Positions 1,796 through 6,155 of a stretch of DNA of 42,854 bases are shown piece after piece; within the stretch, counting starts at the first letter, position 1, and the number at the start of each line of letters is the position of its first letter. The notes under the pieces were generated by a model, which was not told the DNA's origin, did not search any database, and saw only the letters and a program-made list of their open reading frames with translations. The position numbers were made by a program, and so were the translations under genes. Source of the stretch: an uncultured Campylobacter sp. (GTDB lineage: Bacteria; Campylobacterota; Campylobacteria; Campylobacterales; Campylobacteraceae); the NCBI RefSeq assembly GCF_905371695.1, contig NZ_CAJPMA010000001.1, forward strand, positions 1-42,854, given 5' to 3'.

Positions 1796-2748
1796 TAGAG
1801 ATTAAAGATTTAAAGAAATTTTACGGACAGGCGCTAACGATAGACGGCGTCAGCCTAAACGTAGCAAAGGGCGAAATTTTCGCCATCGTAGGTCACAGCG
1901 GCGCGGGCAAATCGACGTTGCTTCGCTGCATAAACGGATTAGAAAGCTATCAAGGCGGTTCGCTTAAAGTATTCGGGCGAGAAATTAGCGAGCTAAAAAA
2001 TGACGAGCTTAGAACGTTTCGCCGCGACGTAGGGATGATTTTTCAGCATTTCGCGCTGATGAGCCGCAAAAACGTCTTTGAAAACGTCGCCGCGCCGCTT
2101 AAATTTTGGGGATTTGATAACGCGCATATTAATTCGCGCGTAAACGAACTCTTAAATTTAGTAGGGCTCGGCGATAAGGCAAAAAGTTATCCTAACGCGC
2201 TTTCCGGCGGTCAAAAGCAACGCGTCGCGATCGCTAGGGCATTAGCGCTAAATCCTAAAATTTTACTCTCCGACGAGGCGACCAGCGCACTTGATCCGAA
2301 CACCACCAAAGGCGTCTTGGAGCTTCTTACTCGCATTAACCGCGAGCTTGGAATTAGCATCGTCATCGTCACGCACGAGATGGAAGTCGTAAAATCTATC
2401 GCCTCGCGCGCGATATTGCTAGAACACGGCAAAGTCATCGGCAGCGGTAGCGTAGAGGAGCTGTTTTTAAAACCCAACGAGAAGATGAAGGAATTTTTGG
2501 GCGAGGAGGAGATTTTACCTAGCGGCGGCGTAAATATTAGGCTATTTTTTCCAAAAGAGGTCGCGCAAAACTGCGTAATAACCAGCATGGCGCGCGAGCT
2601 AGATATCGATTTTAATATAGTCTGGGGCAAATTAGAGCGGCTAAACGAGCGCGTGCTGGGAAATTTAGTCATAAACGTAAACGAGCGCGATAAGCAGCGC
2701 GTGCTTGATTACGTAAGTAAAAGCGGCGTTTTATGGGAGGTGGCGTGA
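1792..2748 (+). CDS. metN: Methionine ABC transporter ATP-binding protein
   Basis: Walker [24 protein letters not shown] signature, [10 protein letters not shown]-terminal NIL-like domain; TTG start overlaps valS stop; adjacent to metI/metQ. Confidence 0.93.
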
Positions 2749-3422
2749 TGTTTGGCATAGATTTTTCGAAATTTCCGGAGCTTTTTAATAAAATTTTACT
2801 TCCGGCGATTAACGAAACGCTTTATATGAGCTTAGTTTCCACACTTTTAGCGTTTATAATAGGGTTAATTCCCGCGGTGCTTTTAATTCTTTGGGATAAA
2901 AACGGGCTAAAACCGAACCCGAAATGTTATTTTACGCTCGACATAGTGATAAATACGCTTAGAAGCTTTCCGTTTATCATACTCATCATCGTGCTTTTCC
3001 CGCTTACCAAGCTCATCGTAGGCACTAGCATCGGTACCACGGCGGCCATCGTTCCGCTTACTATCGGCGCAGCGCCTTTCGTGGCTAGATTAATCGAAAA
3101 TTCGCTAAAAGAGGTCGATAAGGGCATCGTCGAAGCGGCAAAGAGCTTCGGCGCGTCGAATTTTCAAATTATCTTTCGCATAATGTTCGTCGAGGCGTTG
3201 CCCGGTATCGTTTCGGCATTTACGCTAACGCTAATCGTAAATATCGGCTTTTCGGCGATGGCGGGCGCGGTAGGCGGCGGCGGTCTCGGCGCGGTAGCGA
3301 TAAACTACGGCTATCAGCGCTTCCGCCCGGATATTATGTTTTACACGGTCGTGATCTTAATCATAATGGTGCAAATCGTGCAAATTTTGGGCAATTATCT
3401 CTATAAAATTACTAAAAAGTAG
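2748..3422 (+). CDS. metI: Methionine ABC transporter permease
   Basis: LRSFPFIIL, EAAKSFGAS (EAA loop), SAMAGAVGGGGLG motifs. Start placed at ATG 2748 (TGATG overlap with metN stop, GGAGG upstream) rather than 2733. Confidence 0.93.
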   Translation: MFGIDFSKFPELFNKILLPAINETLYMSLVSTLLAFIIGLIPAVLLILWDKNGLKPNPKCYFTLDIVINTLRSFPFIILIIVLFPLTKLIVGTSIGTTAAIVPLTIGAAPFVARLIENSLKEVDKGIVEAAKSFGASNFQIIFRIMFVEALPGIVSAFTLTLIVNIGFSAMAGAVGGGGLGAVAINYGYQRFRPDIMFYTVVILIIMVQIVQILGNYLYKITKK

Positions 3423-3450
3423 CCGTAATCGGCTACTTTTATTTTTGTTT
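3415..3450 (+). terminator. Intrinsic terminator after metI
   Basis: Perfect stem AAAAGTAGCCG-taat-CGGCTACTTTT (3415-3440) followed by ATTTTTGTTT. Confidence 0.8.
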
Positions 3451-3470
3451 AAAGTTTTTTTGCTTACAAT
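3437..3470 (+). promoter_or_regulatory. Putative sigma70 promoter for the leader-metQ transcript
   Basis: TACAAT at 3465-3470 preceded by periodic T-tracts, typical of Campylobacter promoters; about 30 nt upstream of the leader ATG. Confidence 0.6.
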
Positions 3471-3501
3471 CACCGCTAAATTTTACCCGAAAGGATCAGC
3501 C

Positions 3502-3561
3502 ATGAAATCAGATATGTGCGATATGCGTCGCTATACCCGAAACGAGTCGTCGAGAGACTAA
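3502..3561 (+). CDS. Putative Met/Cys-sensing leader peptide, 19 aa MKSDMCDMRRYTRNESSRD
   Basis: AAAGGA RBS at 3490-3495, ATG 3502, Met at codons 1, 5, 8 and Cys at codon 6, TAA 3559-3561; directly upstream of alternative hairpins and metQ. Confidence 0.72.
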   Translation: MKSDMCDMRRYTRNESSRD

Positions 3562-3685
3562 CCTAAGCGCGAAATTTCTTTTTAAGTGCTTAGATTGGCT
3601 AGCATTTAAAAAGAAATTTAAGCTCCCATTTATACGCTTATCCTTTTTAAATTCGCTAGCAAAAATTTTTAAAAAGGATAAAACA
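3558..3685 (+). promoter_or_regulatory. Putative translational attenuator (alternative helices, anti-SD/SD sequestrator) for metQ1
   Basis: Helices 3558-3570:3586-3598; 3572-3590:3601-3619 (19 bp); 3598-3613:3643-3660; and perfect 14-bp 3638-3651:3668-3681 covering the AAGGA SD. Confidence 0.72.
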
Positions 3686-4462
3686 ATGAAATTTTCTAAA
3701 ATCTTACTAGGCGCTTTGCTTGCCGTTAGCTTAAATGCCGCAGACAAAGCTAAAACAATCGTCGTAGGCGCCACCCCAGTTCCTCACGCAGAAATTTTAG
3801 AAACGATTAAACCGCTTCTAGCAAAAGAAGGCTACGCGCTTGAAATCAAGGAATTTAACGACTACTCTATACCTAATCTCGCTACTGAGGACGGCGATTT
3901 AGACGCGAATTTCTTCCAACATCTTCCGTATTTAAACGAATTTAACAAAAATAAAGGCACGCATTTGGTTAAAACCGTCGGCGTACATTTAGAGCCGATG
4001 GCGGTTTATTCGCAAAAGATTAAAAACATTAACGAGCTTAAAAACGGCGATAGCGTCGCGATTCCAAACGACCCTACAAACGAATCTCGCGCGCTTGACG
4101 TGCTAGCCGGCGCGGGACTAATTAAGTTAAACGACAACCCGCTAAAAACTCCGCTTGACATAACCGAAAATCCTAAAAACCTGAAATTTAGCGAAATCGA
4201 AACCGCGCAGCTTCCGCGTACTTTAAGCGACGTTACGATCGCCGTTATTAACACAAACTACGCGCTAAACGCGAATTTAAACCCAACCAAAGACGCTCTT
4301 GTCGTCGAAGGCAAAGATAGTCCTTACGTAAATTACGTAGTAGTTAAAGCCGGTAACGAAAACAGTCCAAAAACAAAAGCCCTCGACAAAGCCATTAACG
4401 ACGAGAGCGTTAAAAAATTTATCGAGGATAAATATAAAGGCGCGATACTTCCGGCTTTTTAA
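3686..4462 (+). CDS. metQ: MetQ/NlpA-family substrate-binding protein (paralog 1)
   Basis: GATPVPHAEIL, DANFFQHLPYL, PNDPTNESRAL, INTNY, SPYVN motifs; signal peptide. Confidence 0.92.
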   Translation: MKFSKILLGALLAVSLNAADKAKTIVVGATPVPHAEILETIKPLLAKEGYALEIKEFNDYSIPNLATEDGDLDANFFQHLPYLNEFNKNKGTHLVKTVGVHLEPMAVYSQKIKNINELKNGDSVAIPNDPTNESRALDVLAGAGLIKLNDNPLKTPLDITENPKNLKFSEIETAQLPRTLSDVTIAVINTNYALNANLNPTKDALVVEGKDSPYVNYVVVKAGNENSPKTKALDKAINDESVKKFIEDKYKGAILPAF

Positions 4463-4573
4463 CCGAATTTAGGCGCTCTAACGAGTAAAATTTCAAGTCG
4501 CCGGGCCGTTGCGCCCAGGCTAACCCCGCTCAAAGGCTTTTTACCTTTTGTGCTAAATCTAAAAGGAAAAACA

Positions 4574-5353
4574 ATGAAAATAAGCAAAATTTTGCTATCT
4601 ACGCTAGTAGCGTTATCGCTAAACGCCGCCGATAAGGCGCACACCATTAAAGTCGCGGTCTCTCCCGTCCCGCACGCCGAAATTTTAGAGGCGATCAAAC
4701 CGCAGCTTAAAAAGGAAGGCTACGACCTTGATATTATAGAAATAAGCGACTACTCGATACCAAACGTCGCTACGCAAGACGGTTCGCTGGACGCAAACTT
4801 TTTCCAGCATCTACCCTACTTGCAAAACCAAAACGAAACGCGCGGGTTAAATTTAGTTAGCGTCGCGGCGATCCACTTAGAGCCGCTGGGCTTTTACTCC
4901 AAGAAAATTAAAAATATCAACGAGCTAAAAGACGGCGCTACCGTCGCGATCGCTCATGATCCTAGCAACGGCAATAGAGCGCTTCAAATTTTGCAAAAAG
5001 CGGGGCTTATAGAGCTAAATAAAAATGCCAAAGTAGCGAGCGTGCAAGATATCGTTAAAAATCCTAAAAACCTAAAATTTACCGAACTTGAAGGCGCGCT
5101 TATACCGCGCGCGCTAGATGACGTCGATTTAGCAGCGATTAGCACGAATTTTATCCTTGATATGGGGATGAATCCAAGCAAAGACGCGCTTTTGATCGAG
5201 GATACCGATAGTCCTTACGCAAACATAATCGTAGTAAAATCCGGAAACGAAAACGAACCTAAAATTAAAGCGCTTGTAAGCGCGGCTACTAGCAAAGAAT
5301 CTAAGGAATTTATCCTTAAAAAATATAACGGCGCGATACTGCCGACATTTTAA
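4574..5353 (+). CDS. metQ: MetQ/NlpA-family substrate-binding protein (paralog 2)
   Basis: SPVPHAEIL, DANFFQHLPYL, DPSNGNRAL, SPYAN; start moved to ATG 4574 behind the AAAAGGA RBS. Confidence 0.9.
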   Translation: MKISKILLSTLVALSLNAADKAHTIKVAVSPVPHAEILEAIKPQLKKEGYDLDIIEISDYSIPNVATQDGSLDANFFQHLPYLQNQNETRGLNLVSVAAIHLEPLGFYSKKIKNINELKDGATVAIAHDPSNGNRALQILQKAGLIELNKNAKVASVQDIVKNPKNLKFTELEGALIPRALDDVDLAAISTNFILDMGMNPSKDALLIEDTDSPYANIIVVKSGNENEPKIKALVSAATSKESKEFILKKYNGAILPTF

Positions 5354-5372: not shown

Positions 5373-6155
5373 ATGAAAAATTTAAAATTTTTACTAGCGG
5401 GCGCGCTTTTTGCGCTAAATCTACAAGCCGCGGGCGATGAAAAGACGATCGTAATAGGCGCCACTCCCGTCCCGCACGCCGAAATTTTAGAAGAGGTCGT
5501 AGCGCCGCTTTTGGCAAAAGAGGGCTATAAACTAGAAGTTAAAGTTTTTAACGACTACGTGATTCCTAATTTAGCCGTCGAACAAGGAGATCTCGACGCA
5601 AACTATTTTCAGGGCTTGCCGTATATGAAGTCGTTTAATAAAGACAATGACACGCACATAGTCCCGACCGTCGGCGTGCACGTCGAGCCTATGGGTATTT
5701 ACTCTCGTAAAATCAAGAAGCTAGACGAGCTAAAAGACGGCGATAAGGTCGCTATCTCAAACAACACCGCAGACTCTACGCGCTCAATAAATTTGCTTGA
5801 AAAAGCGGGCGTTATTAAGGCAAAAGACGGCGAATATAAGTCTCCGCACGACATCGTACAAAATCCTAAGAATTTAAAATTTATCGAAATGGAGTCGGCT
5901 CAAACTCCGCGCGCGTTAGACGAAGTAGCAATCGCGTTTATTAATATTAACTACGCGCTAGACGTCGGGCTAAAACCTACGCAAGACGCCCTACTTTTAG
6001 AAGGCAAAGATAGCCCGTATACGAACTACGTAGCCGTAAAGGCGGGTAATGAAAATTTACCGAAAATAAAGGCGCTTGATAAGGCGATTTTAAGCCCCGA
6101 AGTAAAGAAATTTATCGAGGACCGCTACAAAGGCGCGGTGATTCCGTCGTTTTAA
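5373..6155 (+). CDS. metQ: MetQ/NlpA-family substrate-binding protein (paralog 3, divergent)
   Basis: GATPVPHAEIL, DANYFQGLPYM, SPYTNY; AAGGA RBS. Confidence 0.88.
   Translation: MKNLKFLLAGALFALNLQAAGDEKTIVIGATPVPHAEILEEVVAPLLAKEGYKLEVKVFNDYVIPNLAVEQGDLDANYFQGLPYMKSFNKDNDTHIVPTVGVHVEPMGIYSRKIKKLDELKDGDKVAISNNTADSTRSINLLEKAGVIKAKDGEYKSPHDIVQNPKNLKFIEMESAQTPRALDEVAIAFININYALDVGLKPTQDALLLEGKDSPYTNYVAVKAGNENLPKIKALDKAILSPEVKKFIEDRYKGAVIPSF

Follow-up and report, generated by a model that had tools for sequence, protein, structure and literature searches.

The spacer between metI and metQ1, in the 42,854-nt stretch of DNA from an uncultured Campylobacter sp. that was analysed here (the window), raises the question of whether a ribosome on a short leader ORF decides if the Shine-Dalgarno (SD) sequence of metQ1 is exposed or buried. 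An earlier note on this DNA had proposed that four pairings behind the leader, A to D, form two mutually exclusive sets, A+C with the SD open and B+D with the SD hidden, and that methionine supply chooses between them at the level of translation. Our computations covered the leader ORF and its helices, how far these are conserved and covary, the geometry around the stop codon, the burial of the SD and the match between leader codons and transporters. On these grounds we consider it reasonably likely that the element before metQ1 is a ribosome-mediated translational attenuator reporting the supply of sulfur amino acids, and its control is probably kinetic. The features of the locus are the following.

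3415..3440, + strand: intrinsic terminator of metI (11-bp stem, T run), which separates metNI from the metQ unit
3453..3470, + strand: promoter-like block, read by eye (T-rich run ending in TG, then TACAAT at 3465-3470)
3490..3495, + strand: SD sequence of the leader ORF, AAAGGA, 6 nt before ATG 3502
3502..3561, + strand: leader ORF of 19 codons, MKSDMCDMRRYTRNESSRD (ATG 3502, TAA 3559-3561)
3563..3570, + strand: segment 1, the 5' arm of helix A (longer form 3558-3570), its first base 4 nt past the T of the stop codon TAA
3572..3590, + strand: 5' arm of helix B, whose last bases (3586-3590) fall in segment 2
3586..3593, + strand: segment 2, the 3' arm of helix A, overlapping the 5' arm of helix B
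3598..3619, + strand: segment 3 (3' arm of B, 3601-3619; 5' arm of C, 3598-3613)
3638..3660, + strand: segment 4, with the anti-SD CCTTTTT (3' arm of C, 3643-3660; 5' arm of D, 3638-3651)
3668..3681, + strand: segment 5, the 3' arm of helix D, carrying the metQ1 SD AAGGA (3674-3678)
3686..4462, + strand: metQ1, a MetQ/NlpA-family substrate-binding lipoprotein gene (TIGR00363 211 bits, NF008285 205 bits, under or just under the curated cut-offs)

The genes metQ2 and metQ3 are located after metQ1. The promoter-like block is conserved upstream of every copy displayed, and it was not flagged by a scan for E. coli-type promoters; we take it to be a Campylobacter-type promoter, with the start of the metQ1 transcript predicted near 3477.

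All four pairings named in the earlier note are present in the sequence. The core of helix A joins 3563-3570 to 3586-3593 through 8 bp including one G-U, and an extension to 3558/3598 adds four pairs, one of them G-U, and a C/A mismatch. Helix B is a 19-bp stem (3572-3590 with 3601-3619, one G-U). Helix C consists of 10 perfect bp (3604-3613 with 3643-3652) and, beyond a 2-nt bulge, another 6 bp (3598-3603 with 3655-3660), while the 14 perfect bp of helix D (3638-3651 with 3668-3681) enclose AAGGA 3674-3678, 7 nt before the metQ1 ATG 3686. Because they have bases in common, A and B, B and C, and C and D are mutually exclusive; A and D are compatible with each other, a point absent from the earlier note. 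The pairings fold far better than shuffled sequences: the MFE of 3477-3700 was -52.9 kcal/mol, whereas shuffles averaged -36.3 (z -4.4, 0/200 shuffles as good), and local folds with z < -2 against mononucleotide shuffles were obtained for A in 26, for B in 34, for C in 33 and for D in 29 of 34 representatives. An Rfam search matched no family at gathering score, the best leader-type match reaching 17.4 bits against the 50 needed; the SAM, SAH and T-box models were absent among the 23 sub-threshold matches (E up to 10), which were dismissed as chance-like.

The spacer was found in 100/100 other genomes of the genus, with 70-82% identity over nearly its entire length. Covariance model R1 matched in three genera of the family (34/34 genomes of g1, 2/2 of g3 and 7/34 of g5) and in 0/140 genomes from 25 other families of the order. 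Applied to 35 g2 genomes, the model returned a single weak match (L138, E 1.4e-4), which has neither leader motif nor helices and was judged false; short A/T-rich blastn matches to the SD region outside g1 were not counted as homologues. At the site of the metI-metQ spacer, another gene follows metI in three g2 genomes, metQ lies 9 nt after metI with no leader in one g7 genome, and the match in one g4 genome held a stop.

Helix conservation was scored on a MAFFT alignment of the 34 representatives. Helix A was paired in 99.3% of cells (one of its pairs is AU in 25, GC in 5 and GU in 3 sequences), helix B in 95.8% (one pair UA in 31 and AU in 3), helix C in 78.7% (one pair UA in 19 and CG in 14) and helix D in 85.6% (one pair AU in 14 and UA in 10). 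Slid controls gave a lower percentage for every helix, and each of the four helices has at least one pair altered on both sides. With g3 and g5 added, 7/19 pairs of helix B were altered on both sides in an alignment fitted to the model, which 0/500 shuffles matched. Six sequences carry a U-to-C change in segment 2 that regains a G-C pair in A and leaves a C/A mismatch in B; since this change favours A at the cost of B, A itself is argued to be selected. Counts across genomes overstate independence, because the genomes are related. The arrangement read from the window alone, a leader ORF followed by overlapping helices that end in SD occlusion, is conserved and covaries across the homologous spacers.

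The spacing between the leader and the helices is also kept. The earlier note had placed the leader stop codon within the 5' arm of helix A, and among 43 distinct sequences the stop codon indeed lies inside this arm or 0-7 nt away from it. In all 43, the start of segment 1 falls between -1 and +7 nt of the stop codon's first base and its end no later than +14. Helix B begins at +13 to +15 in 41 of them, which, given the size of a ribosome footprint, presumably puts it right at the front edge of a ribosome terminating there.

In the mechanism that we propose, the promoter just past the metI terminator would give an mRNA from about 3477, whose first frame is the 19-codon leader, and the five segments behind the leader stop would pair as 1:2 (A), 2:3 (B), 3:4 (C) and 4:5 (D). 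With ample charged Met- and Cys-tRNA, the first ribosome would stand at the stop codon while the polymerase makes segments 2 and 3. The footprint of this terminating ribosome would cover segment 1, B would form, segment 4 would remain free and D would close over the SD, leaving metQ1 untranslated (OFF). With ribosomes stalled at codons 5-8, which read Met-Cys-Asp-Met and of which Met5, Cys6 and Met8 are the presumed sensing codons, or without initiation, segment 1 would be free and A would form first. Segment 3 would then be left for segment 4 (C), the SD would emerge unpaired for capture by the 30S subunit, and metQ1 would be translated (ON). In this scheme we infer leader translation, stalling, the size of the footprint, timing and polarity. 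One point against the model is that methionine starvation limits initiation as well.

The earlier note expected the fold to change with the position of the ribosome and counted a fold without such a change against the proposal. For the full-length RNA at equilibrium the expectation did not hold: B+D was the MFE structure with either 3502-3540 or 3545-3572 kept unpaired. In energy, B+D (-32.1 kcal/mol) is ahead of A+C (-24.8 kcal/mol). Over the 34 representatives, the RBS-opening cost changed little with the ribosome state (mean difference 0.44 kcal/mol, from -1.6 to +3.0, positive in 22/34), the mean probability that the SD is paired in full-length RNA was 0.90 in the stalled and 0.95 in the terminating state, and a full-length equilibrium switch was seen in only two representatives (L030 and L044). 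Nascent transcripts did switch. When the growing transcript was folded from 3541, A was present up to 3610, B at 3614-3658, A+C at 3662-3674 and B+D from 3678 on. In nascent transcripts without the last arm, A+C (-24.8) beat B (-19.6) when segment 1 was free, and B (-17.7) beat C (-14.2) when it was masked; the pairing probability of the anti-SD in the nascent window RNA was 0.83 in the stalled and 0.03 in the terminating state. The difference in nascent anti-SD pairing exceeded 0.3 in 14/34 representatives, and the switch was absent in 20/34, to which the large L045-type clade and most cystine-type copies belong. This test was run with the ribosome-covered 5' part removed; when the 5' UTR was left free, the SD of the leader captured the anti-SD and the difference was lost in all but 1/34. 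Since the switch is seen only as long as the 3' arm of D has not been transcribed, the mechanism, if right, is co-transcriptional and kinetic, and since B+D is the thermodynamic ground state, ON would be a kinetic trap set during transcription and not an equilibrium alternative. Barriers computed from nested direct paths only were 14.8-25 kcal/mol. Every base of the 14-nt loop of helix A has its complement in the distal 3' arm of B, so that pseudoknot-assisted strand exchange could make the change from A to B fast.

What the ribosome would sense is suggested by the leader itself. The ORF is intact in 89/89 locus records, which hold 27 distinct peptides starting MK[S/T/N]DMC[D/E/Q/H]M, and length differences among the primary copies are multiples of 3. 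Across the alignment of 34 representatives the leader SD and ATG are invariant, the AAAGG of this SD being scored as invariant or nearly so. Non-start Met and Cys make up 3/18 residues of the window leader (P 0.014; background 1.9% Met and 1.0% Cys), 7/14 in the paralogous leader (P 5e-8) and 7/22 in g3 (P 2e-6). The paralogous copy of the element, with its Cys-richer leader, precedes cystine-type transporter genes. Among 129 locus records, 116 leaders stand before a MetQ-like ORF (mean 1.8 Cys) and 13 before a cystine-type binding protein (mean 3.9 Cys; family names checked for 2/13), and the make-up of the leader codons follows what the downstream transporter carries.

The first eight leader residues are almost invariant over three genera while the remaining peptide drifts. 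Lys2 and Asp4, which are not sulfur amino acids, are invariant, and so are the synonymous sites of codons 4 and 6; a pure hunger-codon model requires neither. TnaC arrests the ribosome with tryptophan, and the nascent chain MKSDMCxM might similarly arrest it on a small molecule (free Met, Cys or a derivative) and set the same A/B choice, the downstream RNA logic being unchanged. The conservation of the N-terminal residues favours such an arrest, which we nevertheless regard as unlikely. The rise in mean Cys before cystine-type transporters and the seven Met/Cys among the 22 non-start codons in g3 are what a codon-counting sensor predicts and therefore argue against it, an arrest induced by a ligand at high Met would have the wrong polarity for an importer, and we know of no arrest motif that matches the leader peptide.

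Simpler relatives bear on the polarity and the output of the proposed attenuator. A three-segment version occurs in g3, where segment 3 is the metQ SD itself and is buried directly; as modelled, this relative displays the proposed off/on polarity in its simplest form, in agreement with the polarity given in the earlier note. At the g5 loci L133 and L136, the A/B choice switches at equilibrium with the ribosome constraint; among the distant homologues, B wins under both constraints in 4/6 and A/B switches at equilibrium in 2/6. At L139, represented by one genome, the leader reads through segment 1 and stops beside B, which has no simple fit to the model.

The 3' arm of helix B in g3 consists of the metQ SD and start codon, so termination at that position would be pointless. 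This weighs on classical transcription attenuation, in which B or another helix would be a translation-dependent terminator and SD burial by D would be secondary. A leader ORF with alternative hairpins is the trp/his/leu layout, the 3' arm of B ends in a short U run, and the C. jejuni MetL, LeuL and TrpL RNAs end shortly past their stop codons, according to the available text of PMC3847290. Against this, a consensus scan detected no terminator-like site in 3441-3800, upholding the earlier statement that a GC-stem/U-tract terminator is lacking, and the sole site in 3300-3800 is that of metI. Moreover, the stem of B is long and A/U-rich, its U run lies inside the stem and is followed by AAG, and nearly every homologue has its SD inside helix D. 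We therefore consider transcription attenuation quite improbable.

The palindromes B and D might also act as DNA operators of a dimeric repressor of sulfur-amino-acid uptake, with RNA pairing as a by-product. They form 19- and 14-bp inverted repeats of highly conserved sequence, and the same repeat pair precedes two functionally related operons. The strand test speaks little against operators: the + strand folds better than the - strand in 21/34 representatives with a mean margin of 1.9 kcal/mol, a weak asymmetry that leaves RNA versus DNA unsettled. However, the promoter-like block and a conserved ORF with its own SD both stand upstream of the repeats, A and C are conserved and covary although neither is a palindrome, and D contains the SD. 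Many cells are G-U or U-G (one B pair is GU in 19 and GC in 14 sequences, one C pair is UG in 33/34), combinations that a DNA palindrome, or the opposite strand, would have as A/C mismatches. An operator function thus appears very improbable. That helix D is simply a constitutive hairpin, or one controlled otherwise (by temperature, a small RNA or an RNA-binding protein), beside a leader that is a separate small gene, is hardly credible to us: although D, which is A/U-rich, forms more locally and faster than any other structure around the SD, and equilibrium models show little effect of ribosome position, this would not account for the fixed spacing from stop codon to segment 1, for the way A, B and C are conserved and covary, or for the link between leader Cys and transporter type.

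In ermC, cat and cmlA, a drug acting through one particular nascent peptide is the signal, and segment 1 of the four segments is melted when the ribosome stalls. The metQ1 element has in common with this group, which is summarised in bioRxiv 10.1101/834739, a leader ORF, alternative hairpins and a default-buried SD that a ribosome stalled in the leader would free, and differs in its presumed tRNA-charging signal, its five segments and the location of segment 1 past the stop codon. That preprint describes mycobacterial polycysteine short ORFs (Ms5788A) as translational attenuators, in which, as is proposed here, a short upstream ORF senses the charged tRNA for a sulfur amino acid via stalling, and several loci with a common sensor form a 'ribulon', as they would here. 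The Ms5788A type is leaderless with Cys runs, whereas the metQ1 leader has its own SD and mixed Met and Cys; its stalled ribosome directly blocks the sequestering duplex, per the authors, whereas here a terminating ribosome is proposed to mask a segment. The metQ1 leader is further set apart by the relay of four successively mutually exclusive helices behind the stop codon; the two have no sequence relation and belong to different phyla. With trpL, hisL and leuL, and with the LeuL, TrpL and MetL predicted in C. jejuni (PMC3847290, available text), the element shares an ORF with cognate codons and overlapping helices, the choice among which would depend here too on the position of the lead ribosome. 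The output of trpL, hisL and leuL is an intrinsic terminator, whereas the last helix of the metQ1 element, which lacks a terminator, holds the SD.

The orthologous locus of C. jejuni offers another comparison. CJsORF19 (MMYQMR) is translated, lies upstream of Cj0772c and is called a potentially new leader peptide in the available text of PMC11955535, where no mechanism or structure is given for it. Like the metQ1 leader, it is a Met-rich mini-ORF directly upstream of the family's first MetQ-like binding-protein gene; it differs in having 6 codons, no Cys and no sequence similarity to the metQ1 leader. The exact MMYQMR pattern occurs in 2/58 g2 genomes, and the RNA behind CJsORF19 forms a single 11-bp hairpin directly after the stop codon, not the A-D relay. 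CJsORF19 is a printed analogue by genomic position and Met-rich idea only. The novelty claimed earlier agrees with the Rfam result but is weakened by this suggestion in print, at least as it reads in the available text. We found no paper describing this leader or its helices, PMC11955535 and PMC3847290 coming nearest, although the supplements of these two, on sORF conservation and predicted leaders across Epsilonproteobacteria, could include it.

A broader reading is offered tentatively, and we think it may well not hold in full: the element would belong to an undescribed family of dual Met/Cys-sensing attenuators of Campylobacter relatives, with an importer regulon, a default-ON kinetic relay and an origin by duplication. 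The importers metQ and the cystine-type transporter would then constitute a small regulon read by ribosomes. Co-transcriptional A+C would keep the SD open, and timely completion of the leader would flip the RNA irreversibly to the stabler B+D. The five-segment relay would have arisen from tandem duplication of a sequestering hairpin, the three-segment ancestor type persisting in g3. Finally, the Met-Cys codons AUG-UGC may themselves serve as a sixth segment: resembling segment 2 (GUGC), they would pair with segment 1 in RNA that is not translated.

Amino acid sensing by leader peptides is textbook knowledge for transcription termination and, to our knowledge, rarely documented for translation. 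Methionine is an awkward signal, because it is also needed to start the leader. If true, the reading of the metQ1 element as a translational attenuator would provide a conserved example of translational amino acid sensing of comparative-genomics grade, in a group where, judging by our Rfam search, these genes lack the usual SAM riboswitches. It would also supply a structural hypothesis for the Met-rich mini-ORF seen by ribosome profiling at the same locus of C. jejuni, as given in the available text of PMC11955535. Occurring naturally in forms with three, four and five segments, and as two paralogues tuned to different transporters, the element would be a mutable model for kinetic, co-transcriptional control of translation initiation, for the gain of relay helices by duplication, and for the regulation of sulfur-amino-acid uptake in Campylobacter relatives, many of which are host-associated.

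The 263-nt metI–metQ1 spacer carries a feature that is real and conserved, and we read it as probably a translational attenuator of sulfur-amino-acid importers, mediated by the ribosome, in which the decision would be co-transcriptional and B+D an irreversible OFF sink; its polarity and timing we infer. A leader ORF is followed by five segments that pair as helices A (1:2), B (2:3), C (3:4) and D (4:5), with A/B, B/C and C/D mutually exclusive, segment 4 holding the anti-Shine–Dalgarno (anti-SD) and segment 5 the metQ1 SD.

Features in and around the spacer (forward-strand coordinates; family names of genes are best matches, mostly just below NCBIfam curated cut-offs)
23–1795: valS, 3′ part
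1792–2748: metN
2733–3422: metI
3415–3440: clean terminator of metI
3465–3470: TACAAT, with a T-rich block, in the spacer
3490–3495: AAAGGA, in the spacer
3502 (ATG) to 3559–3561 (TAA): leader ORF, 19 codons, MKSDMCDMRRYTRNESSRD
3686–4462: metQ1, MetQ/NlpA-type binding-protein gene 1
about 4550–5353: metQ2, MetQ/NlpA-type binding-protein gene 2
5373–6155: MetQ/NlpA-type binding-protein gene 3

Further downstream, the metQ1–metQ2 spacer (4463–4575, ~110 nt) contains, near 4499–4520, an inverted repeat that is G+C-rich and lacks a T run. The listed GTG start of metQ2, at 4550, probably lies too far upstream, since AAAAGGAAAA comes after it, at 4562–4571.

An intact leader ORF of 14–21 codons is present in each of the 89 locus records that blastn recovered, which include duplicates of one place and four that are the window itself. 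Its SD and ATG are invariant, indels in primary-copy leaders are multiples of three, and the 27 distinct peptides share the start MK[S/T/N]DMC[D/E/Q/H]M and diverge afterwards. Against a background of 1.9% Met and 1.0% Cys codons (32 long ORFs of the window), non-start Met and Cys occupy 3 of 18 codons in the window's leader (P = 0.014), 4–5 of 18 in other metQ-type leaders, 7 of 22 in the leader of g3, another genus of the family (P = 2e-6), and 7 of 14 in the leader of a second, cystine-type copy (P = 5e-8). Judged from its sequence, the leader appears to be translated and resembles a sensor. Mean Cys is 1.8 in leaders before MetQ-like genes (116 records) versus 3.9 before cystine-type genes (13 records), counts from related records that are not independent, and no other single observation argues as strongly for a codon-reading sensor as this match of codon content to transporter substrate. 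Set beside it, and for all the shared start of the peptides, a ligand-sensing arrest peptide is an unlikely description of the leader.

The position of the stop codon is consistent with such sensing. Counted from base 1 of the leader stop codon, segment 1 starts at −1 to +7 and ends no later than +14 in 43 distinct sequences, and the 5′ arm of B starts at +13 to +15 in 41 of these. Given the footprint size that we assume, a ribosome whose A site holds the stop codon should thus mask segment 1, its leading edge meeting the start of B; one held at codons 5–8 should leave segment 1 free. Locus records L043 and L137 have their stop codon within segment 1; in the latter a 1-nt insertion shifts the leader frame, the ORF ending at a TAG in that segment. 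The variant leader of L139 (genome G159, of the window's genus), MKSDMCCLKKSCRKTTTKR, lacks Met8, and its frame continues across segment 1 to end immediately 5′ of helix B, which does not fit a simple footprint model.

All four pairings claimed by the earlier note were confirmed in the spacer by repeat search and folding; the search recovered B (19 nt, 95%), D (14 nt, 100%), the C core (10 nt, 100%), outer C and the A pairing. The minimum free energy (MFE) structure of 3477–3700 was B+D (−52.9 kcal/mol; z −4.4 against shuffles), and it was still B+D with 3502–3540 or 3545–3572 forced unpaired. The ribosome-dependent refolding proposed in that note thus fails at equilibrium and needs a kinetic version, while its architecture holds and its polarity is probably right. 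Computed energies were −10.6 (A), −19.6 (B), −14.2 (C), −12.5 (D), −24.8 (A+C), −23.1 (A+D) and −32.1 kcal/mol (B+D). Between the terminating state (ribosome at the leader stop, segment 1 masked) and the stalled state (codons 5–8, segment 1 free), the free energy needed to open the metQ1 ribosome-binding site differed by just 0.44 kcal/mol on average, with a positive difference in 22 of 34 representatives. In the growing transcript the optimum was A up to 3610, B at 3614–3658, A+C at 3662–3674 and B+D from 3678; A+C was ahead of B by 5.2 kcal/mol with segment 1 free, and B ahead of C by 3.5 with it masked, so that in these folds the choice depends on segment 1 between the emergence of segments 4 and 5. 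Truncating the window's transcript gave an anti-SD pairing probability of 0.83 (stalled) versus 0.03 (terminating); the difference exceeded 0.3 in 14 of 34 representatives, but not in the L045-type clade (B of 22 bp) or most cystine-type copies. Barriers on nested direct paths were 14.8 (A to B), about 20 (B to A+C) and 19.5 kcal/mol (A+C to B+D), and within this model the first-formed fold would be locked. All 14 nt of the A loop are complementary to the distal 3′ arm of B, and pseudoknot-assisted exchange via this loop could be much faster than the nested paths, a serious caveat on the barriers.

Two further pairings involve the leader region. With the 5′ UTR left free, truncated-transcript folds were dominated by long-range pairing of the anti-SD of D (3639–3647) with the leader's own SD (3489–3496), possible because both SDs are identical. 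RNAalifold paired the GUGC of leader codons 5–6 (AUG-UGC; 3512–3519) with the GCAC/GCGC half of segment 1 (3567–3570) in 33–34 of 34 sequences, and the leader Met-Cys codons copy the segment 2 core; these codons could form a weak 'segment 0' holding segment 1 in untranslated RNA, a role that might be the reason for the invariant UGC at codon 6.

The element would work like the erm/cat translational attenuators and especially like mycobacterial polycysteine short ORFs, which are reported to sense the charging of tRNA-Cys and to govern access to the ribosome-binding site (10.1101/834739). The terminator that defines classical attenuators is missing from it, and a hidden transcription terminator is very unlikely.

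Conservation of the helices was read from a structure-blind MAFFT alignment of 34 representatives, to which 70 distinct sequences were collapsed at up to 4 edits.

Conservation of the helices (34 representatives)
Helix A: 99.3% of cells paired; double-sided change AU 25, GC 5, GU 3; local window z < −2 in 26/34
Helix B: 95.8% of cells paired; double-sided change UA 31, AU 3; local window z < −2 in 34/34
Helix C: 78.7% of cells paired; double-sided change UA 19, CG 14; local window z < −2 in 33/34
Helix D: 85.6% of cells paired; double-sided change AU 14, UA 10; local window z < −2 in 29/34

Slid controls paired less than the true register in every case, and the paired figures of C and D are lower because indels partly misalign their arms. 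When sequences from g3 and g5 (a further genus of the family) were added, in an alignment fitted to a covariance model and hence biased towards structure, 7 of the 19 pairs of B changed on both sides, a count that none of 500 shuffles equalled. Six sequences carry, in segment 2, a U-to-C change that leaves A paired (G–C) and gives B a C/A mismatch; since it favours A over B, A is no passenger. The B–D linker ranges from almost nothing to about 35 nt with the arms retained, and sequence conservation is high because every segment has two partners. On this comparative evidence the four helices are under selection, and an Rfam search found no family close to its threshold. DNA operators are slightly less probable still than a terminator. 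The strand test, which might have spoken against DNA palindromes, was weak (21/34 favoured the + strand); many cells are G–U, and A and C are non-palindromic yet covary, all of which points to RNA. Least probable of all, with A, B and C retained beside D, is an SD hairpin unrelated to the leader.

The spacer of the putative attenuator was found by DNA search in 100 of 100 other genomes of the genus, at 70–82% identity over nearly its full length, unusually high for intergenic DNA. A covariance model built on leader and helix B matched 34/34 genomes of the genus, 2/2 of g3 and 7/34 of g5; under stricter filters it was not found in the 49 genomes searched from seven other genera of the family or the 140 from 25 other families of the order. 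By these matches the element is conserved and no local accident. The lone match among 35 genomes of genus g2 was weak and apparently false. Two genomes assigned to g5 (G184 and G169; loci L073 and L075) carry a copy 80–81% identical to the window's and very near the type of L002 in the window's genus, which hints at intergeneric transfer or at a problem of classification. Segments 1 and 2 of L073 mismatch at one position, and its A window gives −5.0 kcal/mol. In L011 (G058:C124), the ~22 bases at the contig end upstream of the leader resemble what we take to be a sequencing-adapter remnant, not genome sequence.

A second copy with the same A–D architecture occurs in part of the genus only, 5′ of genes for a cystine-type substrate-binding protein and permease, a naming that comes from hmmscan on 2 of 13 loci with best families below cut-offs, all 13 being similar by blastp. 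Its paralogous leader (L060–L071 and L137) is 15 codons long, with four each of Cys and Met, and in L060 lies downstream of proC. The window's own assembly (92% complete) holds one copy of the element, and the cystine-type paralogue was not found there.

For C. jejuni, two published reports describe CJsORF19, a translated 6-codon Met-rich ORF upstream of Cj0772c found by ribosome profiling and termed a potentially new leader peptide by its authors (PMC11955535), and a MetL leader predicted before metBA (PMC3847290). Exact matches to the C. jejuni mini-ORF pattern are present in g2, so that the family is presumably that of C. jejuni. In contrast to the leader and A–D relay of the window, the C. 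jejuni-type locus encodes another peptide, and one hairpin lies 3′ of its stop codon; therefore the idea is in print, whereas this leader family, its relay structure and the cystine-type paralogue were not found in the literature searched, outside which lie the supplements of both reports, which may bear on novelty.

Simpler relatives occur in g3 (L131/L132), where a leader of 23 codons, 5 of them Met and 3 Cys, precedes three segments only: segments 1 and 2 form a 13-bp A hairpin, the anti-SD lies on segment 2, and segment 3, holding the metQ SD and ATG, forms the 3′ arm of B. This arrangement reduces the logic of the earlier note to its minimum. In g5, helix A has a shifted register and a 4–6-nt loop, and the A/B choice switches at equilibrium under ribosome constraint in L133 and L136; equilibrium folding favoured B in both ribosome states in L131, L134, L135 and L139. 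On the minus strand of two g5 loci (L135:1501–1631 and L136:1501–1605), the 3′ arm of B holds AAGGA and the start codon ATG for an additional small ORF, of about 16–18 codons, whose stop abuts the metQ SD, which makes this a two-stage variant that may be translationally coupled. The window's B and D modules repeat each other in direct orientation (3590–3604 versus 3647–3661, 87%; 3605–3613 versus 3668–3676, 100%), from which we infer that the five-segment relay may have arisen by tandem duplication of a sequestering hairpin, with its polarity preserved.
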